Assembly: GCA_046046315.1 (NCBI GenBank)
Contig: JBJOKB010000042.1
Location: 1 to 46,225, forward strand
Source of the DNA: Actinomycetota bacterium
GTDB lineage: Bacteria > Actinomycetota > Actinomycetes > S36-B12 > UBA5976
Reading direction: 5' to 3'
DNA length: 46,225 bases
The position numbers and the translations under genes were made by a program. Shown here one piece after another: positions 4,584 through 37,883 of the stretch. The notes under the pieces were generated by a model. The model made no database searches. It saw only the letters and a list, made by a program, of their open reading frames with translations, and was not told the DNA's origin. The first letter of the stretch is position 1. Every line of letters begins with the position of its first letter.

Positions 4584-5759
4584 CTACTTTAAGAAATCCG
4601 GTACATCAAGATCGTCACTTGGTGTGTCATCAAAAACAACTCTTCTTGGAGTTGAAATTGTGCTGGCGTTAAATGTTGATCCAATTACTGGTTGAGGACC
4701 AGTTTCATCCATAGATTTTGAAACAAAAGATGGAATCTCTGGTTCTGAATTAGTTACAGCATGAATTGAACTTCTACGAACAGAAGCTAAATCTTTATCA
4801 GCAAAACCTGCTGCAATAACTGTAACTCTTACTTCATCACCCAAAGTGTCATCAATTACGGCACCAAAAATTATGTTTGCTTCAGTAGCTGCAACATTTT
4901 GCACCAGACGTGCAGCTTCATTAATTTCAAACAAACCTAGATCAGATCCACCAGCAATGGAAAGCAGCACACCTTTTGCTCCTTGAATATCTGCTTCCAA
5001 CAGTGGAGACGCAATAGCATTTTGAGCAGCGATTGCAGCTCTATTTTCTCCACGGGCAGAGCCAATTCCCATTAATGCGGTTCCTGCTCCAGCCATGACA
5101 CTTCTAACATCGGCAAAATCTAGATTAATTAATCCTGGAGTGGTGATTAAATCTGTGATTCCACTAACTCCTTGAAGTAAAACATGATCTGCTTGTCTAA
5201 AAGCATCAATTACTGAAATGTTTCGATCAGATAGTGAAAGTAATCGATCGTTAGGAATCACAATTAATGTATCGACTTCATTTCTTAAAGCTTCCACACC
5301 GGATTCTGCTTGGGTGATACGACGTTTGCCTTCAAAATTAAATGGTTTAGTAACAACACCAATGGTTAGTGCGCCTACTTCTTTCGCCACTCTTGCTACA
5401 ACTGGGGCTCCACCTGTTCCAGTTCCTCCACCCTCACCGGCGGTAACAAAAACCATGTCAGAACCCTTTAAAACATCTCTTAATTCTTCGATGTGATCTT
5501 CAGCAGCTTGCCGACCAACTGACGGATCTGCCCCCGCGCCTAAACCGCGGGTTAGTTCTCGACCAATATCCAATTTGACGTCAGCATCGCTCATTAATAA
5601 AGCTTGCGCGTCTGTATTAATTGCAACAAATTCAACGCCTTTTAAGCCGGCTTCAATCATTCGATTAACAGCATTAACGCCACCGCCACCAATACCAACT
5701 ACTTTGATAATTGCGAGATAGTTTTGTGGAGCAACCACGTTTATTTCCCCCTGTTTCAA
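4584..5759 (-). CDS. ftsZ: cell division GTPase FtsZ
   Basis: [13 protein letters not shown] and the tubulin signature [11 protein letters not shown]. Actinobacterial C-terminal peptide [10 protein letters not shown]. Confidence 0.97.
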
Positions 5760-5951: not shown

Positions 5952-7082
5952 ATGCAATTAGTTGTGCCCAAAGAAACCCGTTCTGGCGAAAAGAGAGTTG
6001 CCGCAGCTCCCGCAACTATTGCCAAATTGATCAAACTTGGTTTTGAAGTAACAGTTGAAAATAATGCAGGCGTATCTGCTTTATTTTCTAATGAAAATTA
6101 TCAAGATGCTGGTGCAACTATTACCAATGACATTTCTTCTGCTATTAACAAGGCTGACGTTATTGCATCAGTTGGAACACTTCCTGTAAATCTTTCATCA
6201 AATTTGAAACCAGGTGCTGTGTGTTTATCTTTTGCACAAGCTAAGAGAGATAAAGAAAATATTGCAGCGATCGCAAAAGCCAAAGCAACATTGCTATCTT
6301 TTGATTTTGTTCCCAGAATCTCCAGAGCACAAAGTGCTGACGCATTAACTTCTCAAGCCACAGTTTCTGGTTACCACACTATGGTTACAGCAGCTTCTTT
6401 GTTACCAAAAATGTTTCCTTTAGTAATGACTGCTTCTGGAACAATTAGACCCTCAAAAGTTTTAGTTATTGGTGCCGGTGTTGCAGGTTTGCAAGTTATG
6501 GCAACAGCTAAAAAGCTTGGAGCAATAGTTTCTGGTTATGACGTTAGAACTGCAAGTAAAGACGAAGTCAAATCAGTTGGCGCGACTTTTATTGAATTAG
6601 ATCTGCCAGTTGTAGAAGGAAGCGGTGGATATGCCAAGGAAATGGATCAAGAACGCACGAAATTGCAACAAGAATTACTAACTCCTTACATAAGTGCGAC
6701 AGATGTTCTTGTCACAACTGCAGCTGTGCCGGGAAGACCTGCACCAAGGCTTGTGACTGCAGCAATGCTCAAAGGTATGAAGTTTGGTTCTGTCATCGCA
6801 GATATGGCTGCTGAAAATGGTGGAAACGTTGAAGGTTCTGTTGCTGGTCAAATAATTGAAATAAATGGAGTAAAAATTTGGGGTGGACAAAACATTGCTT
6901 CTGAAATGGCCCCCGATGCTTCTTTTCTTTTTGCCGGGAATGTCATTTCCTTACTTTCTTTCATCGTCAAAGACGGCAAAATCAATCTTGATAAAGAAGA
7001 TGAAGTTGTATCCGGAAGTGCTTTATTAATTAATGGTGAAATAACAAATGAATTCGTTAAAGCAGAACTAGGACAGGGGTAA
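5952..7082 (+). CDS. pntAA: NAD(P) transhydrogenase subunit alpha part 1
   Basis: Alanine-dehydrogenase/PNT N-terminal fold with Rossmann motif VIGAGVAGLQ. Followed by pntAB and pntB. Confidence 0.9.
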   Translation: MQLVVPKETRSGEKRVAAAPATIAKLIKLGFEVTVENNAGVSALFSNENYQDAGATITNDISSAINKADVIASVGTLPVNLSSNLKPGAVCLSFAQAKRDKENIAAIAKAKATLLSFDFVPRISRAQSADALTSQATVSGYHTMVTAASLLPKMFPLVMTASGTIRPSKVLVIGAGVAGLQVMATAKKLGAIVSGYDVRTASKDEVKSVGATFIELDLPVVEGSGGYAKEMDQERTKLQQELLTPYISATDVLVTTAAVPGRPAPRLVTAAMLKGMKFGSVIADMAAENGGNVEGSVAGQIIEINGVKIWGGQNIASEMAPDASFLFAGNVISLLSFIVKDGKINLDKEDEVVSGSALLINGEITNEFVKAELGQG

Positions 7083-7086
7083 TTAA

Positions 7087-7392
7087 ATGAGTGTCGAAAT
7101 TGCCTTGTTGACGATTTTTATTTTAAGCATCTTCGTTGGATTTGAAGTAGTTTCAAAAGTTTCCACAATTTTGCACACTCCCCTAATGTCTGGGGCTAAC
7201 GCGATCCACGGAGTAATTTTAGTTGGAGCAATTATTGTTACTGGTCATGCCGACAACAACTTAGAATTAATTCTTGGACTCATCGCGGTAGTTCTTGCCA
7301 CCATCAACATGGTCGGCGGTTTTGTCGTAACTGATCGAATGCTCGAATTATTTAAGTCAAAAAAATCTGACAAAGCCGGTGATAAAAAATGA
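7087..7392 (+). CDS. pntAB: NAD(P) transhydrogenase subunit alpha part 2 (membrane)
   Basis: 101-aa protein with three hydrophobic helices, located between pntAA and pntB. Has a 4-nt ATGA overlap with pntB. Confidence 0.85.
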   Translation: MSVEIALLTIFILSIFVGFEVVSKVSTILHTPLMSGANAIHGVILVGAIIVTGHADNNLELILGLIAVVLATINMVGGFVVTDRMLELFKSKKSDKAGDKK

Positions 7393-8765
7393 CACCGGTG
7401 TGGTCACAACTAGCAAATCTCGGAGCAGCACTTGCGTTTATTTTGGCACTAAAAGCATTATCTTCACCAAAAACAGCACGCTTAGGCAATCGCATTGGAG
7501 CCATTGGTGCCATAGCTGCTGTGGCAATTGTTTTCTTTTCAGAAAGCAATTTAAAACATTTACCTTTAATTTTGGTTGCTGTTGCTTTTGGAACATTAGT
7601 TGGATTTGTGGCTGCAAGAAAAGTTCAGATGACTCAAATGCCACAAATGGTTGCACTCTTTAACGGCGTAGGTGGCGGAGCTGCGATGGCAGTGTCCTCG
7701 ATTGAATTTTTAAAAGCTGGAGCAACTGATGGTTTTGTGGCACTTTTTGCCACAGTATTCACGGTCGTAATTGGTTCTATTTCATTTACTGGTTCCATAG
7801 TTACATTTTTAAAACTTCAGGAACTAATGACTTCAAGGCCAGTTGTATTACCTCTAGGAAGATTAATAACAATTACGACAGCAATTGCAACCTTGTTTAT
7901 GTCAATTTACTTAATGATTAACCCAGAAAATTGGGCGCTTTGGACGCTCGTTGTTTTGTCATTAATTATGGGAATCTTATTTGTATTGCCAGTTGGTGGA
8001 GCAGATGTTCCTATCGTAATCAGTTTGTTAAATGCCTTTACAGGTTTATCTGTCGCTGCAAGTGGTTACGTACTAGATAACGTTTTATTGCTTGTTGCAG
8101 GAACTCTGGTTGGAGCATCAGGCACATTGTTAACGCAATTAATGGCAAAAGCAATGGGCAGACCACTTACCTCAACTTTGTTTGGCGCATTTACAGCTAA
8201 AGCATCAACATCAACCGGGACTGCCGTTGATCGTCCTGTGAAGAGTGCTGGACCAAATGACATTGCAATCATGCTCACCTACGCATCTAAAGTAATTATC
8301 GTTCCAGGATATGGACTTGCTGTTGCTCAAGCGCAACAAACACTTAGAGAACTAGTTGATTTACTGATTTCCAAAGGTGTAGAAGTTGAATATGCAATTC
8401 ACCCAGTGGCAGGTCGTATGCCAGGTCATATGAACGTTCTTTTGGCAGAAGCTGATGTGCCATATGAACAATTGAAAGAAATGGATGAAATTAACTCAGA
8501 ATTCTCCAATGCCAGTGTTGCAGTTGTAGTTGGAGCAAATGACGTAGTTAACCCTGCTGCAAGAACCGATAAAACTTCTCCAATATTTGGTATGCCAATT
8601 CTTAATGCAGATCAAGCAGAACAAGTTGTGTTCATGAAGAGATCTATGCGTCCAGGCTTTGCTGGAGTGGAAAATGAATTACTTTTCAACGATAAAACAA
8701 CTTTGCTTTTTGGAGATGCTAAAGATTCATTATCCAAGGTAGTTGCCGCCGTTAAGACGATGTAG
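7389..8765 (+). CDS. pntB: NAD(P) transhydrogenase subunit beta
   Basis: Multi-pass N-terminal membrane domain plus a C-terminal NADP(H) domain (PGYGLAVAQAQ, VVGANDVVNPAA). Confidence 0.92.
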   Translation: MTPVWSQLANLGAALAFILALKALSSPKTARLGNRIGAIGAIAAVAIVFFSESNLKHLPLILVAVAFGTLVGFVAARKVQMTQMPQMVALFNGVGGGAAMAVSSIEFLKAGATDGFVALFATVFTVVIGSISFTGSIVTFLKLQELMTSRPVVLPLGRLITITTAIATLFMSIYLMINPENWALWTLVVLSLIMGILFVLPVGGADVPIVISLLNAFTGLSVAASGYVLDNVLLLVAGTLVGASGTLLTQLMAKAMGRPLTSTLFGAFTAKASTSTGTAVDRPVKSAGPNDIAIMLTYASKVIIVPGYGLAVAQAQQTLRELVDLLISKGVEVEYAIHPVAGRMPGHMNVLLAEADVPYEQLKEMDEINSEFSNASVAVVVGANDVVNPAARTDKTSPIFGMPILNADQAEQVVFMKRSMRPGFAGVENELLFNDKTTLLFGDAKDSLSKVVAAVKTM

Positions 8766-8800
8766 ATGAAAGTTTTCTACAAAAATCGAATTTAATTATT

Positions 8801-9724
8801 ATGGCTGAAGATAAATTAGTTGCCGTAAAAGTTGCAGATATTGGCAATCAACTTCCTAACCATGTTTCTCCCAGCCAACTTTCAAGTTTTGATAGATGCT
8901 CACTTGCATATTGGTTTTCCTCCGTTGCTGGCTGGAGAGAACCAGCAGGTTTGCCGCAAATTATCGGCACTTTAGTTCATGATGTTTTAGAAAACTTCCT
9001 AAAAATAAAAGCTGAAAATAGAACTAAAGAAGTTGCTTGGAACTTACTTCGAGATACTGGTGAGGAAGTAATTAGTAACAACAAATCTTGGCTTACCGAG
9101 GAGGATTTAGTCACACTGAAAGATAAAAGTGCTGAATCGTTGAAAGGTTATTTTGATCTCGAAGATCCCACCCAATTAGAAATAGACCAAGAAGACTTAG
9201 AAAGACCTGTGACAGCAATTTTTGAGTCTGTAAAACTTTATGGGCGACTTGATCGAATGACTAGAAATGGAATTGTTCGGATTACAGATTACAAAACGTC
9301 TAAAAGACCAGCTGCCCAATATTTGACTGACTCTTTAAGACAAGTGATGCTTTATGCAGCGGGTTTAAAAGAAAACGGATTAGAAGTTGGTGAAGTTGAA
9401 TTAATTTATTTGCCAGGCAGAGATCGAGTAAGAAGACCAACTTATAAATCAGCCTTAGATAGAGCCGTCCAACATTTAGTCACAACCAGACGAAAAATGG
9501 ATTCCTCATTAACCAAACAAATCTGGATGGCTAACCCTGGGAATCCTTGTAAATCTTGCGCATTCATAAAAGCTTGCCCAGCAAAAACTTCCAAAGCTCC
9601 AATTCCTGGAACCGATGAGTCAGAAAATTTATTACAAACCTTGAAACTTGAAAAAAGAGTTAGAACGAAAACAAGTGGTGCGACTGCTGGAATGGAAATG
9701 CTTCCTTTTGGAGATGAAGGCTAA
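8801..9724 (+). CDS. Cas4/AddB-like PD-(D/E)XK nuclease with a 4-Cys (4Fe-4S type) cluster signature
   Basis: Full motif set in the canonical order: C33 (FDRCSLAYW), GTLVHD, GRLD151RM, ITD163YK165T, Q181VMLY185A, and C250-x2-C253-x5-C259 (CKSCAFIKAC). Its stop overlaps the next start (TAATG). Confidence 0.75.
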   Translation: MAEDKLVAVKVADIGNQLPNHVSPSQLSSFDRCSLAYWFSSVAGWREPAGLPQIIGTLVHDVLENFLKIKAENRTKEVAWNLLRDTGEEVISNNKSWLTEEDLVTLKDKSAESLKGYFDLEDPTQLEIDQEDLERPVTAIFESVKLYGRLDRMTRNGIVRITDYKTSKRPAAQYLTDSLRQVMLYAAGLKENGLEVGEVELIYLPGRDRVRRPTYKSALDRAVQHLVTTRRKMDSSLTKQIWMANPGNPCKSCAFIKACPAKTSKAPIPGTDESENLLQTLKLEKRVRTKTSGATAGMEMLPFGDEG

Positions 9725-11583
9725 TGTCCACACAGATCCCTCAAGAATGGAAACCAGGTTTTCCTGTAATTAATTCAGGTTTTTTAAGAATCTCTGCATC
9801 ACAAGTCGGAGCCGACGAAAACAGGGCCTGCAATGACTTCATTTCCCTTAAATCAAGGCCAGCTGCAAAAATTGGTGAAGGCTATATGCAACTTCGCTAT
9901 TCTCCATTTGAAACTTTTCCATTAGGAATAGTTAGAGAAGCTCTACTTTCCACAATCAATAATGAGAAAGTAATTCATGAATTTGAAGATATTGATGAAA
10001 TTGCTGAAAATGCAATCTTAAAAGCTATAAAGAATGCCCGGGGCAAAGTGGAGCAATCGCATAAATTATGGGCAATAGATGCATTAACTGGATATTTAAA
10101 TTCCTGGGAGAAAGCACGCAAAGAAGATTTAGCCAACAACATTGACTTCACTGATTTAGAAATAATTCAAGCATTTGACGAAAATGAGGATTCAAATATT
10201 GAGTGGTTTGCCTGGGGCATTTATCTAACGTCTCGAGATGAAAAAATACGAGAATTCAGAGCATTAAAGTTTTCTAAAGCGGGTTTAACACCAATCAATC
10301 CAGTTAGGTTAGGAGTTATTGCTCGAATCCTTGCCGATGGCGTTCCCCACAGTGATCCGAGTTGGAGTTCACCTAGGGATCCAATTTATAAAGTTTTAAA
10401 ACCGGCAGAAAAAATAAGAATCAGAGAAATTGCTTGTTTGGATTCAAGTCAAGCAGTTGTTTTAGACGCAAGTGTTACTGAAGCTAGAGAAATGTTTACT
10501 AAACAATCATTACCAATTGTGATTGAAAGAATTAAAGGTGGTACTCAAAAACCTGGCCCAAGTTGTCGTGGCTGTAGAGCAAACACAATGTGTTCTGCTT
10601 TGCCAATTCGTCCAGGACTTTTAGGTATCACAGCGTTTGCTCCTTGGCCTAAGGCTTACTCCCCTTCAAAATTTCACACTTACAGAAGATGTCCTAGGCA
10701 ATATTTTTTGCAAGATGAACTTGGTTTAAAAACTAACCAAGAAAGTCAAAACTCTGCTCAGCAAAGAGGGTTACTTGTGCACGCATGGCTTGAACATGCA
10801 CATAAAAGAGCGAAACGATGTTCAATTGAAGATTTACCAACAACTTCAACTTTAGGTGAAGTTGCAACAGCTCTTGGTTGGTCACAAGATGAAGCAAACA
10901 TTGCTCTGCCATTTCTTTCTCAACACCAATTGACTTGTCCAATTACAAACACTTCGAAAGTCGCCACAGAAATAGCAATAGAAGCACTTGATACCGATGC
11001 CGATATTTCAGTTAGCACAAGGCCAGATCTTATTTATAAAAATGGCAACGATTTAGTGTGGCGAGAAATGAAAACTGTATCAAATATTAAAGATTTAGAA
11101 AATAACATTTACTTTAATATTTATCCACAATTACCACTTGCTATCAGATTAATGGTAGAAAATGCGATACCCAAAAATATTATTGAATCTTTAGGTGAAT
11201 TTAAATATAAAAAAGTTGAATTAGAACTTATTTCTCCAGAAGAATGTAAAACTATTACCTGGGATTGTGATGATCAAAATGTGCAATTATCAGCTTGGTC
11301 ACAATTAGCCGAACAAGTCGACAATTGGGCAAGTGACACACTTTTTGCACCTTCTGCCAATCCCCCTTGTAATTGGTGCAAAGTTAGTAAGTGGTGTGAG
11401 TTTGCAAACGCAGAACTAGTTAAAGCCGATATCGGTGGCTTACAAGTTGATCTAAAAACAGGTGAAATTATCGACAATGCTTCTATACCTTTAATTAGCA
11501 ACGATGATCGTGTAGCAAAAGCATTAGGACTTGCTGCTTCACTTGCTGAGGTCAGTGAATCTGATGAAGAAATTCCTTTTTAG
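9724..11583 (+). CDS. tandem double Cas4-like PD-(D/E)XK/Fe-S module protein with an SSB-like acidic C-terminal tail
   Basis: Module 1 has C36 plus C281-x2-C284-x5-C290 (CRGCRANTMC), but no clear D...ExK. Module 2 has C323 (YRRCPRQYF), LLVHAWLEHAH, RPD435LIY, WRE448MK450T and C549-x2-C552-x5-C558 (CNWCKVSKWC). The protein ends in ...SESDEEIPF. Confidence 0.65.
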   Translation: MSTQIPQEWKPGFPVINSGFLRISASQVGADENRACNDFISLKSRPAAKIGEGYMQLRYSPFETFPLGIVREALLSTINNEKVIHEFEDIDEIAENAILKAIKNARGKVEQSHKLWAIDALTGYLNSWEKARKEDLANNIDFTDLEIIQAFDENEDSNIEWFAWGIYLTSRDEKIREFRALKFSKAGLTPINPVRLGVIARILADGVPHSDPSWSSPRDPIYKVLKPAEKIRIREIACLDSSQAVVLDASVTEAREMFTKQSLPIVIERIKGGTQKPGPSCRGCRANTMCSALPIRPGLLGITAFAPWPKAYSPSKFHTYRRCPRQYFLQDELGLKTNQESQNSAQQRGLLVHAWLEHAHKRAKRCSIEDLPTTSTLGEVATALGWSQDEANIALPFLSQHQLTCPITNTSKVATEIAIEALDTDADISVSTRPDLIYKNGNDLVWREMKTVSNIKDLENNIYFNIYPQLPLAIRLMVENAIPKNIIESLGEFKYKKVELELISPEECKTITWDCDDQNVQLSAWSQLAEQVDNWASDTLFAPSANPPCNWCKVSKWCEFANAELVKADIGGLQVDLKTGEIIDNASIPLISNDDRVAKALGLAASLAEVSESDEEIPF

Positions 11584-11619
11584 GCTTACCCCAAAAGATA
11601 AATTTTCCATGCTGAGTGA

Positions 11620-13137
11620 TTGGATTTAAATATGACAAGTCAAGTGATGCTAGTTCCAGACTCAGTTGCAAATCCTAATAATGATGCAACTGCCAAATTA
11701 TTGGCAAAAGTACCCACTGGAATATTAATTGGCGACAAATTCGTAGATGGTTCTAATCAACCATTCAATGTAACTGATCCTGCTAACGGTGAATTATTAA
11801 CAAAAGTTGCAAATGCTGGAGTTTCAGATTTACAGAAAGCTTTAGATTTTGCAGTTGTGGCTCAAGAAAAATGGGCTAAAACAGCTCCAAGGGTTAGAGG
11901 TGAAGTTTTAAGAAAAACTTATGAATTGATGATCGCCCAAGCAGATGATTTGGCAATGCTGATGTCTTTAGAAAATGGAAAAACTTTAGTTGATGCAAAA
12001 GCAGAGGTTAATTATGCTGCAGAATTTTTTCGGTGGTTTTCTGAAGAGGCTGTAAGAATTGATGGCTCCATTAGAAATGCGCCAAGTGGAGCGAATCGCA
12101 TTTTGACTTATAAACAACCAATTGGAATTGCATTTCTAATAACACCTTGGAATTTTCCTGCTGCTATGTACACCAGAAAAGTTGGAGCTGCTCTAGCTGC
12201 AGGTTGTGCAGCAATTTTGAAACCTGCATCTGAAACGCCCCTAACCGCCTTGGCAATCAGCAAAATCATGTTGGAAGCTGGAGTCCTTCCCGGGACAATT
12301 TCAGTTCTTCAAACAAATCAACCAGGACCTTTAACAGATGCTGCACTTGCAGATGAACGAATCGGAAAATTATCCTTCACAGGTTCTACTGGAATTGGAA
12401 AAATGTTATTAAAGAAAGCTGCAGAAAGAGTTTTAAATTGTTCTATGGAACTTGGTGGAAACGCACCATTTATTGTGTTAGATGATGCCGACATAGATTC
12501 CGCAATCGAAGGTGCCATGATTGCAAAAATGCGCAATGGTGGTCAGGCTTGCACAGCAGCAAACCGATTCTTTGTGCAAGAAAAGGTTCACGATGAATTT
12601 GTGTCTAAACTTGCCCAAAAAATGGGTGCATTAAAAGTTGGGCATGGAACTTCATCAGATACAAGTCTTGCTCCTCTAGTTAACCGAAAAGCAGTTGGAT
12701 CAGTCGGCGAATTAGTAAATGACGCAATCAGTAAAGGTGCTACACAATTAGTTGGGGGAACTCCATCTCCTGGGCCTGGTTGTTACTTTCCTGCAACTGT
12801 TTTAGGAAATGTATCGGCTGATGCCAAAATAATTTCGGAGGAAGTTTTTGGTCCAGTTGCTGCCGTAGTTAAAGTTAAAGATGAAGCAGAAGCATTAATG
12901 ATTTCAAATAAATCAGAATATGGTTTAGCTGGATACATCTATACCAAGAATTTATCCCGCGGCTTAAAAGTTAGTGAAGCTTTACAGGTTGGAATGATTG
13001 GCTTAAACCGCGGATTAGTCTCTGATCCCTCTGCCCCATTTGGCGGAGTAAAACAATCTGGATTAGGCCGCGAAGGTGGTTATGAAGGAATTGACGAGTA
13101 TTTAGAAATTAAGTACGTAGCAACTAACGACTTTTAA
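11620..13137 (+). CDS. gabD: NAD(P)+-dependent succinate-semialdehyde dehydrogenase (aldehyde dehydrogenase family)
   Basis: ALDH motifs FTGSTGIG, ELGGNAPFIV and the catalytic Cys context GQACTAANR. The true start may be the ATG at 11632 rather than the TTG at 11620. Confidence 0.82.
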   Translation: MDLNMTSQVMLVPDSVANPNNDATAKLLAKVPTGILIGDKFVDGSNQPFNVTDPANGELLTKVANAGVSDLQKALDFAVVAQEKWAKTAPRVRGEVLRKTYELMIAQADDLAMLMSLENGKTLVDAKAEVNYAAEFFRWFSEEAVRIDGSIRNAPSGANRILTYKQPIGIAFLITPWNFPAAMYTRKVGAALAAGCAAILKPASETPLTALAISKIMLEAGVLPGTISVLQTNQPGPLTDAALADERIGKLSFTGSTGIGKMLLKKAAERVLNCSMELGGNAPFIVLDDADIDSAIEGAMIAKMRNGGQACTAANRFFVQEKVHDEFVSKLAQKMGALKVGHGTSSDTSLAPLVNRKAVGSVGELVNDAISKGATQLVGGTPSPGPGCYFPATVLGNVSADAKIISEEVFGPVAAVVKVKDEAEALMISNKSEYGLAGYIYTKNLSRGLKVSEALQVGMIGLNRGLVSDPSAPFGGVKQSGLGREGGYEGIDEYLEIKYVATNDF

Positions 13138-13799
13138 GGTCTAACTACTGGCACCTCAGGTGTTGAAACATCGTAAGTTGACCCTGCCATTCTTCTTAAA
13201 ACTTTTAATACAGCACTTTTTTCTTGCGCTTTATCAACATTGCCCCACAAAACTTTTCTACCATTTGTCATGATTAACCACATCGAACTTGGATTATCTG
13301 CATTTGTTGACGCGACTTCTGCTTTTAGCCAGTCTGGAAAACTTTGCCAAACAACATAACTTGATGCTCTAGAAGCATCATCTGGACCACTGATGAATGG
13401 GAAAGAAGTCTCTGCTGGAGCTGGTAAATATGCAATCCCTGTCTCGTCAACTAAATATTTAACACCTGCCACATCTGTTATTGCAACTGGTTTTCTTTCA
13501 GTAACTTCGATGACCAAAGTTGAAGGCCAGCCTCTTCTTACTTCTGCCCTACCAATTTGTGGAATGGATTTTAATCTGTCAACAACTGAGTTAGTTGGAA
13601 TTCTTAAAAGTTGGGTGCTTAAGGAAACTTGCGCGGTATCAGAAATCAATTGAACAGGAACTTCCTGGGCTCCCCGTATATCTATTTTCTTTACAATTAA
13701 TAGATTTGAATACCAGCCAATGTAAATAAGCGTTGTCGATATCGCGGCAATTAATACAATTCCAAAAAAGATTCGTCGCCGAATGTGTCTTTTAATCAC
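13134..13799 (-). CDS. ftsQ: cell division protein FtsQ
   Basis: N-terminal basic stretch plus a single TM helix, then a POTRA/FtsQ-type periplasmic domain. Has a 4-nt overlap with murC upstream. Confidence 0.8.
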   Translation of the reverse strand: MIKRHIRRRIFFGIVLIAAISTTLIYIGWYSNLLIVKKIDIRGAQEVPVQLISDTAQVSLSTQLLRIPTNSVVDRLKSIPQIGRAEVRRGWPSTLVIEVTERKPVAITDVAGVKYLVDETGIAYLPAPAETSFPFISGPDDASRASSYVVWQSFPDWLKAEVASTNADNPSSMWLIMTNGRKVLWGNVDKAQEKSAVLKVLRRMAGSTYDVSTPEVPVVRP

Positions 13800-24661: not shown

Positions 24662-25050
24662 GGTGTACTCACTGGTGTTACAACATTTGGATCCGGCTCA
24701 TTCAATATTGGATCAACACCTGCACCCATTAAGCGACCATCTCTTAAGTCAATGAAGGCTGAACCTTGACTTGGAATCATTCCAATCTCAATTGCTTTGT
24801 TTTTAAGCACTTCAGGAGATTCCATGCGTGAGACATTTTGGGCCAGCATTTCATGCTCGTCAGCCAAAGCGATTGATTGATTTTGTAATTCTTGGATTTC
24901 AAATTGACCTTGGGACAATAAAGTATTTACAAACAATCCGCCAAGCATCCCCAGTAAAACTATTCCAGAAATAATTAATCCAAAACCAACTGCAGCAATC
25001 TGCTTTGGAGTTACTTGCGGTGTGCTTAACGATATTGGTGCAACGCTCAT
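24658..25050 (-). CDS. FtsL-like single-pass membrane division protein
   Basis: 130 aa with one TM helix followed by a short coiled-coil-like segment. Occupies the ftsL slot between rsmH and ftsI, with 4-nt overlaps on both sides. No sequence-specific motif was recognised. Confidence 0.55.
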   Translation of the reverse strand: MSVAPISLSTPQVTPKQIAAVGFGLIISGIVLLGMLGGLFVNTLLSQGQFEIQELQNQSIALADEHEMLAQNVSRMESPEVLKNKAIEIGMIPSQGSAFIDLRDGRLMGAGVDPILNEPDPNVVTPVSTP

Positions 25051-26006
25051 GCTGCCACCGCCACTCTTTGAGCAACTCTTAAACGAACAGAAGTCGAGCG
25101 CGGATTTGCAGCAATTTCTTCATCGCATGCTTGTTCTGCTTTTCTAGTGACTAATTCAAAAGGTGCAATATTTTTTGAAAGTAATACCGGCAATCCTGGT
25201 AAGGCATCAATTATCGAAGATTGCTCTTTAAAAGCATTTTTAACAATTCGATCTTCTAGAGAGTGATATGACAAAACTAAAATTCTTCCACCCACAACAA
25301 GAGCTGCCATGGCTTGAGGTATCGCTTTTTCTAAAATCTGTAATTCGTTATTAACTGCGATTCTTAAAGCTTGGAAAGTTCTTTTTGCTGGATTTCCTCC
25401 TGTACGCCTTGCTGGTGCCGGAATTACATCTTTTATTAATTCAACTAATTCAAAAGTTGATTTCCAAGGTTTATTAATTCTTCTTTTTACGATTTCTTGA
25501 GCGATTCTTTTTGCAAATTTTTCTTCACCATAAGTGCTTAAAATATACGCTAATTCTTTAACATCATAATTATTCAAAATGTCTGCTGCACTCAAGGAAT
25601 CTTGATCATTCATTCTCATATCAAGTGGTGCATCTTGTGCATAAGAAAATCCACGATTTGCTTCATCAAGTTGAATTGAAGAAACTCCTAGATCTAGCAA
25701 AACTCCATTAACTTTTCGTCCTGCTAAGATTTTTTCAATTTGGTCAAAAGTTTCATTTACAAATTCAACACGACTAGCAAGATTTCCAAGTCTAAGTTTT
25801 GCTCGTTCAATCGCAATTGGGTCTCTATCGATACCTATTATTTTTAGATTTGGAAATTCTTTTAAGAGAGATTCTGTGTGACCAGCTAAACCAAGGGTTC
25901 CATCAATTAATAATGGATTTGAAACATTAAGTGCAGGTGCAAACATTTCAAGAACACGATCACGCATAACAGGTATGTGTTGTTCTTGCAAAGACTTTTC
26001 AGTCAT
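25047..26006 (-). CDS. rsmH: 16S rRNA (cytosine1402-N4)-methyltransferase RsmH/MraW
   Basis: HIPVM....DGTLGLAGH, DLGVSS.QLD and SYHSLEDR motifs. Confidence 0.93.
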   Translation of the reverse strand: MTEKSLQEQHIPVMRDRVLEMFAPALNVSNPLLIDGTLGLAGHTESLLKEFPNLKIIGIDRDPIAIERAKLRLGNLASRVEFVNETFDQIEKILAGRKVNGVLLDLGVSSIQLDEANRGFSYAQDAPLDMRMNDQDSLSAADILNNYDVKELAYILSTYGEEKFAKRIAQEIVKRRINKPWKSTFELVELIKDVIPAPARRTGGNPAKRTFQALRIAVNNELQILEKAIPQAMAALVVGGRILVLSYHSLEDRIVKNAFKEQSSIIDALPGLPVLLSKNIAPFELVTRKAEQACDEEIAANPRSTSVRLRVAQRVAVAA

Positions 26007-26041
26007 TTACTGTTTCCCCTTCCCCTTACTTTTCGGCTTTG

Positions 26042-26137
26042 CGTTTCACCGAGGTCCCCCTCTGCAAACATTGCTTCCGGCTTCGGGGAAGAAAGTCGGC
26101 GGACAATAATTTGCAGAGAGAGGCCTCAAGCGAAACG
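26042..26137 (-). ncRNA. long imperfect hairpin in the mraZ-rsmH spacer, consistent with the actinobacterial mraW RNA motif
   Basis: CGTTTC (26042-47) pairs with GAAACG (26132-37), GAGG with CCTC, and CTCTGCAAA (26060-68) with TTTGCAGAG (26110-18). There is an inner CTTCC/GGAAG stem. It lies directly 5' of rsmH on the coding strand with no U-tract after it. Confidence 0.5.
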
Positions 26138-26164
26138 AAAATAATTCGTTTAGCTATTTAGCTT

Positions 26165-28250: not shown

Positions 28251-29465
28251 TTAATCGATGAGTCGTGCCGGCTTTATGGCGTCATCGCCGAATCGGGCAC
28301 TGGCTTTATCGCTAGCCTTATCGATTTCACGCCATCCCTTCTCGTTTTCCCCCAGCAGTAGCTGTCGGGAGGCTGTTTGGGCTTGCTCAAGTTTTTCGAC
28401 TCTTACTCCCACCAACCGGACTCGAACGCGGTCCAGTTTTAGATTCTCAAAAAGTGTTTTAGTGATCGCATAGATATCTTTTGCAACATCGGTTGGATCC
28501 GAAATGGTTTTTGAACGAGAAATGGTGGAAAAGTTAGCAAATCTCACTTTCAACACAATGGTTCGTCCCACAAGTTCTGCAGCTCTTAACCGGGCGGCAA
28601 CTTTTTCACTTAGTCTTAGAATTTCTCTTAAAATATCTTCTGCTTCATCTAAATCCTTAGAAAAAGTTTCTTCGTTGCCAATACTTTTTTCAGGTTCATA
28701 AGGTTCAACATTTCTTTCATCTCGTCCCCAAGATAATTCATGTAAATGTTCAGCTAGGCCCTCTCCTAAAGCTCTGCTTAAAGTTTTTAGTGGCAAATTA
28801 GCAATATCGGCAACTTTATATAAACCTAAACGAGCTAAAACTTCTTCTGTTTTTCCTCCCACTCCCCAAAGTGCTCCAACTGGTAGTGGGTGTAAAAACC
28901 TAATTACTTCATCAGGTGAAACCACTAATAATCCATCAGGTTTAGCTCTAGTAGAAGCTAATTTGGCAATAAATTTTGTGGGAGCAATTCCAACCGAGCA
29001 AGTAATGTTTTCTTGAGCAAATACTTTGTCTCTTAGTTTTTGCCCTATTTCAGTAGGTGTGCCTAAAAGTTTTCTGGATCCTGAGACATCTAAGAATGCC
29101 TCATCGACACTTAATGGTTCAACTAAAGGAGTCATCGAATAATAAATATCTTGTAAACGATTTGATACTTCTTCATATTTTTCATGACTTGGTTCAATTA
29201 CTGTTGCTCCAGGGCATTTTCTTAATGCTTCAGTCATAGACATTGCCGCATGCACTCCAAATTTGCGAGCTTCATATGTTGCAGAAGTAACAACTCCTCT
29301 ACCTCCGCTATGGCCAACAATTACGGGAGTTCCTCTTAATTCAGGTCGATCTTTTAATTCCACTGAAGCGAAAAATGCATCCATATCAACATGCAAAATA
29401 TTTGAATTTGAATCATCACCTGTTAGTTCAATATGGGGAAGTTTTAAAATTTGGCGATGCGTCAT
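28251..29465 (-). CDS. dinB: Y-family DNA polymerase IV (catalytically intact)
   Basis: Catalytic motifs DMDAFFASVE and SVDEAFLDVSG are present. Contains RQLLLG, which resembles the E. coli Pol IV clamp motif QLVLGL. Its start overlaps the dnaE2 stop (ATGA). Confidence 0.9.
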   Translation of the reverse strand: MTHRQILKLPHIELTGDDSNSNILHVDMDAFFASVELKDRPELRGTPVIVGHSGGRGVVTSATYEARKFGVHAAMSMTEALRKCPGATVIEPSHEKYEEVSNRLQDIYYSMTPLVEPLSVDEAFLDVSGSRKLLGTPTEIGQKLRDKVFAQENITCSVGIAPTKFIAKLASTRAKPDGLLVVSPDEVIRFLHPLPVGALWGVGGKTEEVLARLGLYKVADIANLPLKTLSRALGEGLAEHLHELSWGRDERNVEPYEPEKSIGNEETFSKDLDEAEDILREILRLSEKVAARLRAAELVGRTIVLKVRFANFSTISRSKTISDPTDVAKDIYAITKTLFENLKLDRVRVRLVGVRVEKLEQAQTASRQLLLGENEKGWREIDKASDKASARFGDDAIKPARLID

Positions 29466-32400
29466 AGTTCAATCATCTCGCTTTTGTTAGTTATCAAAGT
29501 TCTTCTCCCCACAGACATGCCGCCTGCTTTTGCCCGGTAAGAATTTGGCTTGGCGCCAGGACTTAATTCAATTACTTTTTTAACTTCATTAATTCCTTTT
29601 TGTTGAAAAATTGTAAACATTTCACCTAGGTCCCAACAACCAGTTGCTCTTACCGAAACTCCCCTAGGCCCAGTTCTTCTTAAAATCCCTCGTACTAAAA
29701 GTAGAACTGAGTTATAAACAGTCGAGGCGTAATAACTTTGCATATCTTCAAAAAAAGCGGCATCACTTGGCCCAGTGGGATCATCAATAGTTAGAAAAAT
29801 AACTCTTTTGCCGCTTCGAACCGGTGGAGTTTGGGTAGTAACTTTTACTCCAGCTACTAATACTTCTTTTCCTCCCGTTAAAGAAACTAATGATTTAGCA
29901 GGAGTTACTCCTAAAGCTTTAAAAAATGGGATATAGGAATTAACTAAATGACTACTGGCATCAAGTCCTAATACTTGCAATTCGTTAATAATATTTTCAC
30001 TCTTTGTAAAATCTGGTAAACCTGAAGAAATATTTTCTGGTGTAGTGGAAACATCTAAAATCATTTGATTACTAATTACTCCTAAGTTATGTTCTAAATC
30101 AGATAACTGCAGCAATAAATCTCTTCTATTTAATTGACTTGGTAGTAAGGAATCAAATCCGCCAGCCAAAATAATGTTTTCCGTAACATCTTTAGAAACT
30201 TGCGCTCTCTGCCAAAAATCAGCTAGTGAAGTAAAGGGTCTGTTTTCTACAATTCTTTCCATCTCCGCACTACTAATTGATCTCACATCTTGTAGGGATA
30301 GTCGGATACCGTATCTATCTTCATTTTTTTCTACTCGGTAACACTGATCTGATTTGTTAACATCAAGACCAAGTAAGGCAATACCAAAGTTTTTAGCATC
30401 ATTTGCAATTAATCTTTTGGGATACATTCCTGGATCATGAGTTAATACTCCAGCTAAAAAGGCTGCCGTGTGATGGGTTTTTAGCCAAGCTGATTGATAA
30501 GTAGGAAGTGCAAAGGCACCAGCGTGTGCTTTACAAAAACCAAAGGATGCAAAAGCTTTGAGTATTTCCCAAATATGTTTAATTAATTCATGAGAATATT
30601 TCAATTTTTGCGCAGATTTAATGAACCATTCTTCAACTTCAAGTTGACCTTCAAAAGATCCCATAGCGCGACGCTTTTCATCTCCCAGCGCTAAAGAACA
30701 ACCAGTCATGACACTTATCAGTTTTATGACTTGTTCATGGAAAACCACCACTCCACTTGTTTCTTGCACAATAGGATCAATTTTTTCGTGTAATACAGGA
30801 AGAGCTTTTCTGCCTTGTCTTACTTCTAGAAAAGGTGTGATCATGTCAGATTTAACTGGACCTGGCCTAAATAAAGAAATATCAATTATTAGATCATTAA
30901 AGTTTTGTGGACCAAATTTGCCAATTAGTTCTCTTTGCCCGGGAGACTCTATTTGAAAGCAACCTAGTGTTTTAGTTGATTGAATTAGCTTATAAGTCTT
31001 TTCATCTGCTAAAGAGATTTCATCAAGGTTAATGTCTATTTTGTCTACTCGTTTTATTTCTTGCAAACTATAAGCCATGGCAGATTGCATTCTTATCCCT
31101 AAAACATCAAGCTTAAGAAAACCCATTAATTCCACATCATCTTTATCAAATTGGCTCATAGGAAACTTTGCTCCACTTGATTCAACTGGAGTTCGATCCA
31201 AAAGTGTTTTATCCGACAAAATAACTCCACAAGGATGCATTGCTAAATGTCTTGGTAAACCATCTAGTTTTTCAACTAAGTCAAGATATAAATCAAGGTT
31301 TCCTTCACTCATTAAACGAGTAAAAGATGATTTTTTTAACTCTGGTAATTGGCTTAAAACTTCCCTAGCTCTTCTAGCGCTTACTCGTGGAAATGTTTTA
31401 GCAAAAGCATCAATTTCTCCTGGAGGTAAACCAAGTGCTGCACCAACATCTCTAACCGCATGTCTTACTCGATAAGTTTCGCGCATTGAAATGCAAACCA
31501 CACGGTCTTTACCAAATCTTTCATAAATTGCATCATAAATATCTAATCTTCGGTCTGATTCCACATCAATATCAATATCTGGCAATGCAGTTCTTAAAGG
31601 AGATAAAAATCTTTCCATTATTAGTCCGTATTTAACTGGATCAAGACCTGATATTCCTAAAGTGAAATTAACTAGACTTCCAGCTCCAGATCCTCTAGCT
31701 GCAACTCGAATTCCCATTTGTTTAGTTAAATCAACAACTTCACCTACAGTTAAGAAATATCCAGCAAACCCTAATTGCCTAATAACATCTAATTCTTGAC
31801 TTAATCTTTCCTGATATTCAAGTTTGTATCCAAGCCCTAATTTTGTTAAACCAGATTGACATTTGTCTACTAATACTTTCATAGGTTCTAAACTATTTTT
31901 TCCTAAAATAACATCAGTTTCAGGAACGCTTACAGAACCAATTCCAATATCTTTAACAGGATCTAAGCTACATTCTTCTGCAATTTGCTCGGTAAATTTT
32001 AATAACAACAAAGCAGTTTCAGGACTACTTAAATGTTTTCCAATATTGTAAGCAACCTGTGACATATCGGCACTAGATTTTAAATAAGCAGATCCCCTAA
32101 AGCCTTTTACTTGTTCAAATCTCATTTGTTTTTTTGTTTCAACTGAATCAAGTAATTCAGCCATAATTGCATCTTCGGGGTTAAGGTATCTGACAGCATT
32201 TGTTAGAACTGCTCTTAAACGATTATCTTTAGCAAAAGTTGCCATTTTACTAGCTGTGCTTAGTGAGTATTTAGGATCAGTTACTTTATGAGAATTTGGA
32301 TGAGCAGTTACTTCAATTACTACATCATTTCTATCAACATGACTTAACCAGTTTTGTAAGAAACTATTTGCTAAATCAATTCTGTTTCGTATTACACTTT

Positions 32401-32794
32401 GCCCAATTTCAGAATTAATTCCCAGTATTGCTACTAGATTTCCTTGCTGCATCTTTTCCCACAACAAAGACACATCTAAAACAGGTTTACCTCGCTCTTT
32501 TTGGTGAGCGCTGCTTACTAATCGACATAAATCTCTCCAACCATTTTTCCCGCGAGCAAGCACCAAGACTCTTGATTTACCTAAATTGAAATTAACTCCA
32601 ACAATTGGGGCTATGCCATTGATCATGCAGTTGTGGACAAAATTAATTGCCCCCGACATAGTGTCTTGATCGGTTAGTGCAAGTTTGAAAAAGTTATGAA
32701 ATGAAGCTTTCGCAACTATTTTTTCAGGCACGGCTGTGCCATAGCGAAGTGAATAGGCAGAAGAAACATTTAAGTGCGTAAAACTTTGTTGCAA
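29462..32794 (-). CDS. dnaE2: error-prone C-family DNA polymerase alpha subunit, DnaE2-like
   Basis: 1110 aa with a TTG start. Polymerase aspartates are in PDIDIDVES and LKLDVLGI. The DnaE2-like helix reads FGFCKAHAGAFALPTYQSAWLKTHHTAAFLAGVL. N-terminal PHP ligands are degenerate (HLNVSSAYS, LTDQDT). Confidence 0.78.
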   Translation of the reverse strand: MQQSFTHLNVSSAYSLRYGTAVPEKIVAKASFHNFFKLALTDQDTMSGAINFVHNCMINGIAPIVGVNFNLGKSRVLVLARGKNGWRDLCRLVSSAHQKERGKPVLDVSLLWEKMQQGNLVAILGINSEIGQSVIRNRIDLANSFLQNWLSHVDRNDVVIEVTAHPNSHKVTDPKYSLSTASKMATFAKDNRLRAVLTNAVRYLNPEDAIMAELLDSVETKKQMRFEQVKGFRGSAYLKSSADMSQVAYNIGKHLSSPETALLLLKFTEQIAEECSLDPVKDIGIGSVSVPETDVILGKNSLEPMKVLVDKCQSGLTKLGLGYKLEYQERLSQELDVIRQLGFAGYFLTVGEVVDLTKQMGIRVAARGSGAGSLVNFTLGISGLDPVKYGLIMERFLSPLRTALPDIDIDVESDRRLDIYDAIYERFGKDRVVCISMRETYRVRHAVRDVGAALGLPPGEIDAFAKTFPRVSARRAREVLSQLPELKKSSFTRLMSEGNLDLYLDLVEKLDGLPRHLAMHPCGVILSDKTLLDRTPVESSGAKFPMSQFDKDDVELMGFLKLDVLGIRMQSAMAYSLQEIKRVDKIDINLDEISLADEKTYKLIQSTKTLGCFQIESPGQRELIGKFGPQNFNDLIIDISLFRPGPVKSDMITPFLEVRQGRKALPVLHEKIDPIVQETSGVVVFHEQVIKLISVMTGCSLALGDEKRRAMGSFEGQLEVEEWFIKSAQKLKYSHELIKHIWEILKAFASFGFCKAHAGAFALPTYQSAWLKTHHTAAFLAGVLTHDPGMYPKRLIANDAKNFGIALLGLDVNKSDQCYRVEKNEDRYGIRLSLQDVRSISSAEMERIVENRPFTSLADFWQRAQVSKDVTENIILAGGFDSLLPSQLNRRDLLLQLSDLEHNLGVISNQMILDVSTTPENISSGLPDFTKSENIINELQVLGLDASSHLVNSYIPFFKALGVTPAKSLVSLTGGKEVLVAGVKVTTQTPPVRSGKRVIFLTIDDPTGPSDAAFFEDMQSYYASTVYNSVLLLVRGILRRTGPRGVSVRATGCWDLGEMFTIFQQKGINEVKKVIELSPGAKPNSYRAKAGGMSVGRRTLITNKSEMIEL

Positions 32795-33597: not shown

Positions 33598-34392
33598 ATG
33601 AGTATTCGCGTTTACCGAGGACCTCACCGTGAATTTGGTGGACCAGCAACTGGAATTAAATCTATTCCTTGGGTTTCTTTTGCAATAGGAGTTCTTGGAA
33701 CAGTTCTCTGGCCAGTTTTTCCTACAGATAGAAAAGATTCATTAACTTTCTTTATAGTTTTTTTACTCTTTATAGCTACAACATCTCATGCTTTTATTTG
33801 GTGGGGAATTGCATGGGCTGCCACATTTATGGTGGTTTCATTAGGTATTAGCTTTTCTGTGTTAGCGATAAATTCGGCAACAGGTTTAATATTTGGAGAC
33901 ATTAGTTACACCTACCGACTTGGTTTTCAATTACTTTTTGTTCCTTTTGTGACTCCATTAATTTGGAGTTCAGCAATTTATTTAGGAATAGTTATCTCTC
34001 GAAGAATTTCTCGGGCAATAGCAATGTCTCCCCTAATGGCTGCTCTTGCAACAACAGGATTATTGACTGCACTTGATAGTTTATTTGTTAAAGCAGGTTT
34101 TCACAGTTGGCTAACCTGGATAGATAAACCAGCAATACTTGGTTTATCGCCTTTAAAAGCACAATTTATGACTTTTGTAGTTGTTTTAATAATCATGTTA
34201 CTTAGTGCCCAAAACTCAAAAAATGATCGCTACTCAACTCGTATGCCAATCTTTGCTTATTCTTGGATTTTAATTTTTACAATTTTTAGTGCTTATTTTC
34301 TTGCCGACAATTTAGCAAATTTTCTAATTCCAATTTTAGTTATGGTTTATATCATTAGTGCATTTATTTATAAAACGATCAAAGGCAATTAA
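33598..34392 (+). CDS. polytopic membrane protein resembling the carotenoid biosynthesis protein family (DUF422/CruF-like hydratase)
   Basis: About 7 TM helices. The block TGLIFGDISYTYRLGFQLLFVPFVTPLIWSS resembles the G-x-x-FG-x-Y-x-Y...VP...W core I recall for DUF422. Directly precedes the GT2-crtE-crtI-crtB genes. Confidence 0.45.
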   Translation: MSIRVYRGPHREFGGPATGIKSIPWVSFAIGVLGTVLWPVFPTDRKDSLTFFIVFLLFIATTSHAFIWWGIAWAATFMVVSLGISFSVLAINSATGLIFGDISYTYRLGFQLLFVPFVTPLIWSSAIYLGIVISRRISRAIAMSPLMAALATTGLLTALDSLFVKAGFHSWLTWIDKPAILGLSPLKAQFMTFVVVLIIMLLSAQNSKNDRYSTRMPIFAYSWILIFTIFSAYFLADNLANFLIPILVMVYIISAFIYKTIKGN

Positions 34393-35274: not shown

Positions 35275-35287
35275 TCTCTTTTCACCA

Positions 35288-37881: not shown

Positions 37882-37883
37882 TA

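Follow-up and report, generated by a model that had tools for sequence, protein, structure and literature searches.

A helicase-less pair of Fe-S nuclease genes in an actinobacterial cell-division locus, one of them a PprPDDEXK-family member with an SSB-like C-terminal tip

In described machines that process DNA ends, nucleases of the Fe-S PD-(D/E)XK fold act next to a motor. An N-terminal UvrD-like SF1 motor is part of both AdnA and AdnB; AddB, which carries an Fe-S nuclease domain, and RecC, which has no Fe-S cluster, are subunits of motor-driven complexes; and the nuclease domains of AdnA and AddB cut strands that a motor feeds to them. Cas4 is a single-domain protein of the same fold. Cas4 proteins occur with either cluster type, [4Fe-4S] or [2Fe-2S] (PMC4176176), and both Cas4 and the Cas4-family protein ACE1 are single-stranded DNA nucleases (PMC12094033). 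Helicase-less Cas4-like nucleases are already known to be common, as solo-Cas4 proteins, which stand alone and are typical of small genomes (PMC5704561). Here we analyse two adjacent genes, A and B, in a 46,225-nucleotide stretch of DNA from an Actinomycetota bacterium (assembly GCA_046046315.1, contig JBJOKB010000042.1; the window). They encode predicted Fe-S nucleases of this fold and no motor, and B, a member of a family catalogued with pPIWI-RE systems, ends in a tip resembling that of SSB, the protein that binds single-stranded DNA.

Two further bodies of work bear on the pair. The pPIWI-RE system was predicted as a triad of REase, DinG and PIWI proteins by Burroughs and colleagues (PMC3702460), and experiments on a PIWI-RE, the sole one studied in this way, tied it to ciprofloxacin tolerance and cell division and not to phage defence (PMC10991935). 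Another candidate PIWI-RE paper, PMC7641849, was rejected because it mentions just 'Piwi-related' proteins. SSB proteins end in an acidic tip, which reads DDDIPF in E. coli (PMC5872125), GADDEPPF in M. smegmatis (PMC3575820) and DDEPPF in mycobacterial SSB (PMC7847540). At least 17 E. coli proteins, several of them helicases, recognise the SSB C-terminus (PMC7145534, PMC10164576).

Our preferred reading, a package on which as a whole we are evenly divided between belief and doubt, is that A and B form a helicase-less, coupled pair of Fe-S nucleases that processes single-stranded DNA or DNA ends, is linked to the SSB interactome and leans towards repair. No characterised system of such architecture was found in the PDB, Pfam, NCBIfam or literature searches, as the original prediction, made from the letters of the window alone, had supposed.

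Nuclease modules of A and B

Gene A (8801 to 9724, plus strand) is an open reading frame (ORF) of 307 aa for a predicted single-domain Fe-S PD-(D/E)XK nuclease of the Cas4/AdnA-nuclease type. Gene B (9724 to 11583, plus strand; 619 aa) encodes a tandem of two Fe-S nuclease-fold modules followed by a C-terminal tail. The two ORFs overlap in the sequence TAATG (9722 to 9726, plus strand), in which the stop codon of A (TAA, 9722 to 9724) shares a base with the start codon of B (ATG, 9724 to 9726), an arrangement that suggests translational coupling of A and B. The original prediction had described the pair as three Cas4/AddB-type Fe-S nuclease modules; both ORFs, their coordinates and lengths, the overlap and every residue named in it are correct in the sequence.

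The residues named for A, all at the claimed positions, are C33, H60, D61, D151, D163, K165, Q181, Y185, C250, C253 and C259, and the motif layout is C33; H60; E134; D151; D163-x-K165; Q181xxxY185; C250-x2-C253-x5-C259. In 20 homologues, with identities down to 23%, C33, H60, E134, D151, D163, K165, Y185, C250, C253 and C259 are invariant. A matches PF12705 (PDDEXK_1) over its full length (residues 21 to 260; 95.1 bits, cutoff 22). Single-protein sequence searches of the PDB gave nothing useful and profiles were required; the best solved relative of the A-family profile is the nuclease domain of M. smegmatis AdnA (residues 795 to 1042, E = 2.6e-18, the whole domain covered). With Cas4, solo-Cas4 and ACE1 the protein shares the fold and the four Fe-S cysteines, and it gives weak matches to Cas4 profiles, but both fall under the curated cutoffs (TIGR00372, 47.4 bits against 65; PF01930, 21.5 against 22.7). 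B matches neither of these models, and unlike Cas4 the pair has no cas1, cas2, CRISPR array or Argonaute gene beside it. In the scan of A and B the addB_alphas model reached 37 bits against a cutoff of 486, and Pfam and NCBIfam detected no helicase domain in either protein. By these sequence measures A is predicted to be a complete enzyme of the Cas4/AdnA-nuclease type.

The annotation 'putative RecB family exonuclease' is given to distant homologues of A (23-29% identity), which are sited on other contigs. This annotation sets A beside the widespread stand-alone 'RecB family exonuclease' of actinobacteria (COG2887), the group of M. tuberculosis Rv2119, whose members are likewise Fe-S PD-(D/E)XK proteins of about 280-310 aa that have no helicase. 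The rv2119 gene is damage-induced (PMC8151990); literature searches returned no biochemical characterisation of the Rv2119 family. In the syntenic locus L003 an additional partial copy of A (8439 to 9044; A-profile positions 1 to 162, E = 2.5e-74) stands immediately upstream of the complete gene; it may reflect a duplication within the locus or an artefact of assembly.

Module 2 of B (residues 305 to 560; 10636 to 11403, plus strand) is the only region of B recognised by Pfam, with 84.1 bits to PF12705 over residues 312 to 559. Its residues are C323; G349; H353; D423; D435; E448-x-K450; Q469; C549-x2-C552-x5-C558. Among 142 aligned proteins of the B family, the four cysteines are present in all 142, D423, D435 and E448 in 141, K450 in 138 and Q469 in 118. 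The module aligns to the A family in hhalign (probability 97.9%, E = 4.5e-13), and the AdnA nuclease domain is again the best PDB match of its profile (E = 2.2e-6). By every sequence criterion, module 2 should be an intact Fe-S PD-(D/E)XK nuclease.

Module 1 (residues 1 to 300; 9724 to 10623, plus strand) has no sequence match in Pfam, NCBIfam or the PDB. When it was compared with module 2 or A in hhalign, only the last hairpin and the CxxCx5C motif aligned (E about 3e-4, probability 39-45%), and a forced global alignment was unsuccessful. Because the sequence profiles align only these elements, the homology of module 1 is drawn from its predicted fold. The AlphaFold model of the whole of B (pLDDT, the model's confidence score, 75) has an identical order of helices and strands in both halves, and the AF2 model of module 1 alone has a pLDDT of 72 and a predicted TM-score of 0.76. 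In a Foldseek search of the PDB, the top match of the module 1 model is ACE1 (E = 6.6e-7, TM-score 0.50-0.56), followed by the AdnA nuclease domain, Dna2, AddB (3u44_B) and Cas4 SSO0001, with RecC (1w36_C) as a weak match (E = 0.74); ACE1 is the top match of both B models. The models support the tandem layout of B as far as the predicted fold of module 1 is concerned. Together, the data show B to be an internal duplication of one fold, of which the C-terminal copy retains all catalytic residues.

The active site of module 1 is degenerate. With the motif register taken from the order of secondary-structure elements and not from superposition, module 1 has R176-E177-x-R179 in place of R447-E448-x-K450 of module 2, W164-G165 where the Asp of motif II is expected, and Arg, His, Trp or Val at position 179 in 136 of the 142 members. 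As it lacks the canonical catalytic Asp and Lys, the module is probably a dead scaffold. Its cysteines are kept, with C36 in 135 members and C281, C284 and C290 in 141-142; all eight cysteines named for B (C36, C281, C284, C290, C323, C549, C552 and C558) stand at the claimed positions, and seven of them occur in 141-142 members.

A 1+3 cysteine pattern, an N-terminal Cys with a C-terminal CxxCx5C, recurs in all three modules, and the conservation of the 12 cysteines has now been checked: the four of A are invariant in 20 homologues and the eight of B are present in 135-142 of the 142 members. From the sequences we conclude that the A-B pair would have three cluster-binding modules and two catalytic sites. 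Three folds with their cysteines are therefore left of the three nuclease modules claimed at the outset, and two active sites, since module 1 lacks D...(D/E)xK.

AdnAB, the source of the best solved relative of the A family and of module 2, resembles the pair in its Fe-S RecB-type nuclease fold, its 1+3 cysteines, its two subunits and its two nuclease active sites, but A and B are motor-less, and AdnAB has neither a degenerate nuclease module nor an SSB-like tail. AddB and RecC show by precedent that a resection machine may retain an enzymatic domain in degenerate form, as a scaffold for DNA guiding or recognition, although the dead domain of AddB is a helicase and not a nuclease. In contrast to the single-domain Cas4, B is a tandem with a dead copy.

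The SSB-like tip of B and the PprPDDEXK family

B is matched by the PADLOC model PDLC02423, 'PprPDDEXK' (PADLOC-DB v2), a model that has no curated cutoff, with E = 1.7e-59 and 200 bits; residues 106 to 560 of B align to positions 18 to 443 of 449 in the profile, a span that takes in the latter half of module 1, then the first Cys cluster and module 2. For comparison, a genuine operon member scores 330 bits and non-Ppr plasmid homologues score 172-174 bits. A profile search of 1.84 billion representatives returned just 323 relatives of B at E<=1e-3, nearly all of 500-640 aa. Where named, they are called 'PD-(D/E)XK nuclease family protein' or 'hypothetical', and all named organisms are Actinomycetota; a viral contig scan returned no relatives. 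The two-module layout, the eight cysteines and the catalytic residues of module 2 are common to the 142 aligned members. A third homologue search, based on a broad 55-sequence alignment, returned close relatives only, its selection being dominated by shared words, and missed the Ppr-type members.

A search of plasmids with B (tblastn) led to a homologue on the Streptomyces rimosus plasmid pSRIMHP. There PADLOC labels four consecutive genes PprPDDEXK (E = 9e-99), PprRE (pPIWI_RE_Y and pPIWI_RE_REase), PprDinG and PprPIWI. These labels identify 'Ppr' as the pPIWI-RE system, and the B family is the extra first gene in a four-gene version of it. The genuine operon member agrees at every aligned position of the B alignment; its N-terminus, which includes the position of C36, is unaligned. 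B therefore belongs to a family that is catalogued, has defined partners in other genomes and is biochemically uncharacterised: the idea that B lies outside all known families fails, and what survives of it is that no member has been characterised.

B shares with the Ppr proteins the PDLC02423 family, the layout, the cysteines and the module 2 residues, but its setting differs. With the S. rimosus proteins as tblastn queries, PprRE, PprDinG and PprPIWI are absent from the window and from 49 related genome loci. Gene A, in turn, is missing from the Ppr loci (the tip-less metagenome loci considered below), the Ppr-linked members have no tail or SSB-like tip, and B scores 200 bits against the 330 bits of the genuine operon member.

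The most informative feature of B, one absent from the original prediction, is its end. B closes with SESDEEIPF after a tail of about 60 residues (residues 561 to 619; 11404 to 11580, plus strand) that is modelled with low confidence (pLDDT 43-57, and 28 at the extreme end). Read from the sequence, the extreme C-terminus D-E-E-I-P-F (11563 to 11580, plus strand) forms an SSB-like acidic tip. As in the SSB C-terminus, an acidic run and (I/P)PF follow a low-confidence, probably disordered linker; in contrast to SSB, B lacks an OB fold, and it is not itself an SSB. The rest of the tail (11404 to 11562; residues 561 to 613) contains two conserved elements, the motif 'h-D-h-x-T-G-E-h-h' (VDLKTGEII) and an amphipathic 'AKALGLxAS' helix (AKALGLAAS in B), and the TGE motif occurs in 38 family members, every one of them tip-bearing. 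Tips in relatives of B take forms such as DDDIPF, DEDIPF and DDEPPF. Their ending differs between lineages, within the range of forms that SSB itself has: low-GC Nanopelagicales show IPF and the Streptosporangiales (Planomonospora and Rhizohabitans) EPPF. Aeromicrobium has EPAPF or PPPPF. The conserved terminal (I/P)PF, beyond mere acidity, would match the pocket-binding mode of the SSB C-terminus (PMC5872125, PMC10164576). Non-exhaustive literature searches found no report of a nuclease with an SSB-like tip.

Protein A has an ending of its own that resembles the tip of B yet stands short of the extreme C-terminus. Its last residues (294 to 307; window 9680 to 9721) include MEMLPFGDEG, in which 'LPF' is followed by one to five mostly acidic residues. 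This ending (GLPFDD in relatives) is kept in the close Nanopelagicales clade and not in more distant A homologues.

An acidic run with a terminal F is found in 70 of the 142 B-family members and in 44 of 116 non-redundant representatives. Tip-bearing tails are 19-80 residues long; the other members stop about 14 residues past the last cysteine. Of the 45 complete chromosomal homologues in the genome collection, about 42 end in the tip, and tblastn found no Ppr partners within the fetched flanks of these homologues. The Ppr-linked set was obtained from a metagenome scan with an alignment of tip-less members, using one peptide pattern of one subfamily. Among the tip-less metagenome loci with at least 1 kb downstream, PprRE is the next gene in 14 of 15, and on contigs that extend far enough PprDinG and PprPIWI follow too. 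The tip is missing from all of about 18 complete Ppr-linked ORFs. As read from the sequences, the tip appears to go with B-family genes that have no helicase or partner in cis and to be lacking from those that have them, a correlation.

Other plasmid homologues have different neighbours. Those of S. albidoflavus and Rhodococcus antarcticus (L050 10695 to 12688 and L051 10674 to 12656) share a downstream hypothetical protein of about 266 aa and a convergent ImmA/IrrE metallopeptidase, and in the Rhodococcus antarcticus plasmid an EcoRI-family methyltransferase and a DUF262 protein adjoin that pair. This set of neighbours may be a third wiring of the B family. The ~266-aa protein was considered as an equivalent of A and rejected, as it has no similarity to A or to PADLOC models. 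The Ppr operon of pSRIMHP (L052 5229 to 18395) lies in a dense defence island, where the opposite strand encodes a Hachiman HamB-like helicase and further genes encode an AbiEii-type nucleotidyltransferase, a TPR protein and a TIR-domain protein.

Pairing of A with B and the surrounding genes

All Nanopelagicales-type loci that reach upstream of B (L001-L013, L015-L022, L025 and L045) have A immediately before it, with the two genes abutting or overlapping. In a first group of loci, B has 53-88% identity to B of the window (only 35% in L015) and the pair has the same flanks as there, between ftsZ and ftsQ; a second group, in which the identity of B is 31-33%, has unrelated flanks. The pnt genes flank the pair only in the clade L001-L015 and are not in the flanks of L016-L022, and gabD is missing from the syntenic loci L003, L006 and L008. 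Identities to the window in L010 are 54% for B, 73% for A and 83-91% for ftsZ, pntAA, pntB and gabD. In a high-GC Nanopelagicales clade, a gene for a family-1 uracil-DNA glycosylase (UDG) ends 10 nt before A in L018 (8265 to 8954) and L019 (4512 to 5198), both of them loci of the second group. A conserved UDG-A-B operon was considered and rejected, since UDG adjoins the pair only in these two loci.

No A-like gene was found within 10 kb of B in Aeromicrobium, Planomonospora, Rhizohabitans or related metagenome-assembled genomes. The neighbours of B outside the Nanopelagicales vary, and include ispH with glpX, an N6 methylase with PARG and NUDIX, and RraA. General co-conservation of the two genes, which had been expected, is thus contradicted by the genera in which B stands alone; the pair is of the Nanopelagicales type only, and the pairing is a lineage-specific addition to a protein able to work without A. 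An apparent A-B fusion in Aeromicrobium (a 972-codon ORF, L034) was also rejected. No nuclease domain is present in the part upstream, and this extension, a high-GC artefact, runs over an ispH gene on the other strand.

In the window, the two genes belong to a six-gene block, pntAA-pntAB-pntB-A-B-gabD (5952 to 13137, plus strand), which interrupts an otherwise contiguous division and cell wall (dcw) cluster on the strand opposite to its borders, ftsZ on the left (4584 to 5759, minus strand) and ftsQ on the right (13134 to 13799, minus strand). Synteny of the block in this position extends over loci in which B identity ranges from 53 to 99%. By Pfam, the upstream neighbours are the transhydrogenase genes pntAA, pntAB and pntB (5952 to 8765, plus strand), and the downstream neighbour is a gabD-like aldehyde dehydrogenase gene (11620 to 13137, plus strand). 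The intergenic gaps on either side of A-B are 35 and 36 nt, pntAB, A, B and gabD share a strand, and no terminator-like site was seen in either gap; co-transcription of A-B with pntAB and gabD is plausible on this layout. The pntAA, pntAB and pntB genes are probably mere context, with functional partnership with A-B unlikely. The position originally described, a cell-division locus beside pntAB and gabD, holds in the window but is lineage-specific, with gabD missing from three loci and other flanks in the second clade. The G+C content is 35-41% across the window, and that of the A and B region (0.37-0.39) is like the remainder.

The Pfam annotation covered most large ORFs of the window, several dcw-cluster ORFs lying outside the scan. 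Apart from A and B, those annotated are all housekeeping genes: ileS, divIVA, sepF, ylmE, yfiH, ftsZ, pntAA, pntAB, pntB, gabD and ftsQ, together with murC, murG and other dcw genes, rsmH, dinB, the gene for Pol III alpha, carotenoid genes, ogt and the genes for DAHP synthase and pfk. No helicase or cas gene is among them, a tandem-repeat scan found no CRISPR-like array in the window, and neither DinG nor PIWI was detected by tblastn, which bears out the claim that the window contains no helicase, cas or CRISPR element.

Away from the pair, an mraW RNA motif (26032 to 26143, minus strand; Rfam RF01746; 53.8 bits, gathering score 50) lies upstream of rsmH/mraW (25047 to 26006), in keeping with an origin in actinobacteria. 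Together with the dcw cluster and the related loci of Nanopelagicales metagenome-assembled genomes, the motif marks the source as a low-GC actinobacterium of fresh water near the acTH1/Nanopelagicales group. A full-length gene for a DinB-type Y-family polymerase (28251 to 29465, minus strand) overlaps by 4 nt with the end of the gene for the DnaE-type Pol III alpha (29462 to 32794, minus strand; 1110 aa). A carotenoid cluster (33598 to 38834, plus strand) encodes a carotenoid-synthesis membrane protein, a polyprenyl synthetase, a phytoene desaturase-like oxidase and a phytoene synthase, and includes an ORF with no Pfam match (34393 to 35274). Beyond it lies ogt, for O6-methylguanine-DNA methyltransferase (40452 to 40964, minus strand).

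Function of the pair

In the mechanism that we propose, A and module 2 of B would cut single-stranded DNA or DNA ends, as their relatives do. Module 1, itself non-catalytic, would serve as a scaffold or guide a strand, much like RecC's dead nuclease-like domain or AddB's dead helicase domain. Two active sites would come from A and module 2, comparable to the two nuclease domains of AdnAB and AddAB, with A contributing the second site in Nanopelagicales. The tip of B would dock in the pocket with which SSB-interacting proteins bind the C-terminus of SSB, and the motor-less nuclease would thereby be brought to helicases or repair proteins on SSB-coated DNA. Docking of the tip would then substitute for the DinG partner that the Ppr version has in cis.

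We favour repair or recombination because the pair has a fixed core position in small genomes, a native composition, a UDG neighbour in one clade and a repair-hub motif; in particular, a fixed core chromosomal position in streamlined genomes points to repair or recombination over mobile defence. A number of observations weigh against this reading. A defence system is the only defined genomic role of the B family, plasmid-borne homologues of B lie in defence-like islands, and our literature searches found no paper on the function of PprPDDEXK. The link between tip and gene context is a correlation, for which the Ppr-linked set came from one search pattern. Mycobacterial ClpX binds the SSB tail (PMC7847540), and by analogy the tip of B could serve turnover instead of recruitment. 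In Aeromicrobium, Planomonospora and Rhizohabitans no A adjoins B, so A is no obligate partner, and B diverges faster than its neighbours.

The main rival is that the pair is a minimal anti-phage or anti-plasmid module, derived from the Ppr system but made up of nucleases only, with the Cas4-like A in the place of PIWI, DinG and REase. We regard this as a real but minority possibility; with it goes the tentative idea that the tip may target replicating or recombining foreign DNA coated with SSB, or else SSB-binding phage proteins. B does match a defence-candidate model, its family supplies the first gene of genuine Ppr operons, and its plasmid homologues keep company with an EcoRI-family methyltransferase, DUF262, ImmA/IrrE, TIR and AbiEii proteins and a Hachiman-like helicase. 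A is Cas4-family-like, and ACE1, the top structural match of both B models, is an Argonaute partner in defence; the faster evolution of B than of its flanking genes fits as well, and solo Cas4, enriched in small genomes, has had both repair and defence proposed for it (PMC5704561). The pair is, however, fixed, syntenic and compositionally native within the cell-division cluster across the whole clade, and the annotated ORFs of the window include no methyltransferase, sensor, toxin or mobile-element gene. The Ppr partners are missing from the window and the 49 loci, the viral contigs yielded no relatives, and the chromosomal homologues of other actinobacteria lie among housekeeping genes, such as ispH and glpX. 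What is more, pPIWI-RE itself is without demonstrated defence, the studied PIWI-RE being the one tied to ciprofloxacin tolerance and cell division (PMC10991935).

A and B might also be independent repair nucleases that are merely neighbours, A being the local COG2887 'RecB family exonuclease' of the Rv2119 kind and B working solo. We consider this unlikely. It would account for the genera in which no A-like gene lies within 10 kb of B, for the distant A homologues sited elsewhere, and for the different rates at which the two proteins change, A being 73-93% identical where B is 53-86%; the putative recB-like exonuclease gene rv2119 is reported to be mitomycin C-induced in a recA mutant (PMC8151990). 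The stop codon of A nevertheless overlaps the start codon of B, and the adjacency and order of the two genes are retained in two deeply diverged clades with unrelated flanks, beyond what is expected of chance neighbours.

A further suggestion, which we think improbable, is that the tip is an intramolecular autoinhibitor, an acidic DNA mimic in the groove of B itself, or a recognition element for ClpX or ClpXP. The tail of B is acidic and has low model confidence, and there is a precedent in Hfq, in which an acidic C-terminal tail folds back on the nucleic-acid-binding surface. The acidic C-terminal tails of SSB and T7 gp2.5 likewise fold back on nucleic-acid-binding surfaces. The SSB peptide FGGGDDEPPF binds and activates mycobacterial ClpX, for which a peptide without the terminal Phe, 19noF, served as control (PMC7847540). 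Against both variants, the tip is lost exactly where DinG and its partners are encoded in cis, a better fit to recruitment than to a generic autoinhibitor or degron, and the exact terminal (I/P)PF is kept, as fits binding to the pocket for the SSB C-terminus (PMC5872125, PMC10164576).

That the nucleases are tied functionally to pntAB and gabD, for example as Fe-S redox sensors co-regulated with NADPH supply, is very improbable and largely refuted by the variable context: the shared strand, the 35-36 nt gaps with no terminator-like site and the conserved block pntAA-pntAB-pntB-A-B(-gabD) in L001-L015 speak for it, but the second clade has A-B with unrelated flanks, L003, L006 and L008 have no gabD, other neighbours stand beside the B homologues elsewhere, and the catalytic nuclease residues are strictly conserved.

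Two extensions of the preferred reading, repair with recruitment through SSB-interacting proteins, go further than the package itself. In the first, which is speculative and which we doubt in this full form, the tip is a portable plug for a hub, through which B (with A in Nanopelagicales) borrows SSB-binding helicases in trans and works as the end- or gap-resection machine of streamlined actinobacteria, in function a split, modular counterpart of AdnAB or RecBCD. In the second, seen with the same doubt, evolution would have wired the family in two ways, either with DinG and PIWI in cis, for defence, or with the SSB interactome in trans, for repair. What appears to be new is the branch-specific wiring, a dead and a live Fe-S module in tandem with an SSB-type tip and an AdnA-nuclease-like partner in fixed order, and the clean split between tip and operon inside the PprPDDEXK family.

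If the preferred reading is true, a nuclease dispenses with a motor of its own by copying the six-residue docking tip of SSB. The PprPDDEXK family would split into two modes distinguishable by sequence, one with a DinG/PIWI operon and no tip and the other with a tip and no operon, and this split would open a first way into the function of the accessory nuclease in pPIWI-RE systems. If defence is the function instead, the pair would be an unusually small, chromosomally fixed module in a lineage with few known defences. As a repair system, it would be a candidate for the processing of broken or gapped DNA in the abundant, uncultured, small-genome actinobacteria of fresh water.

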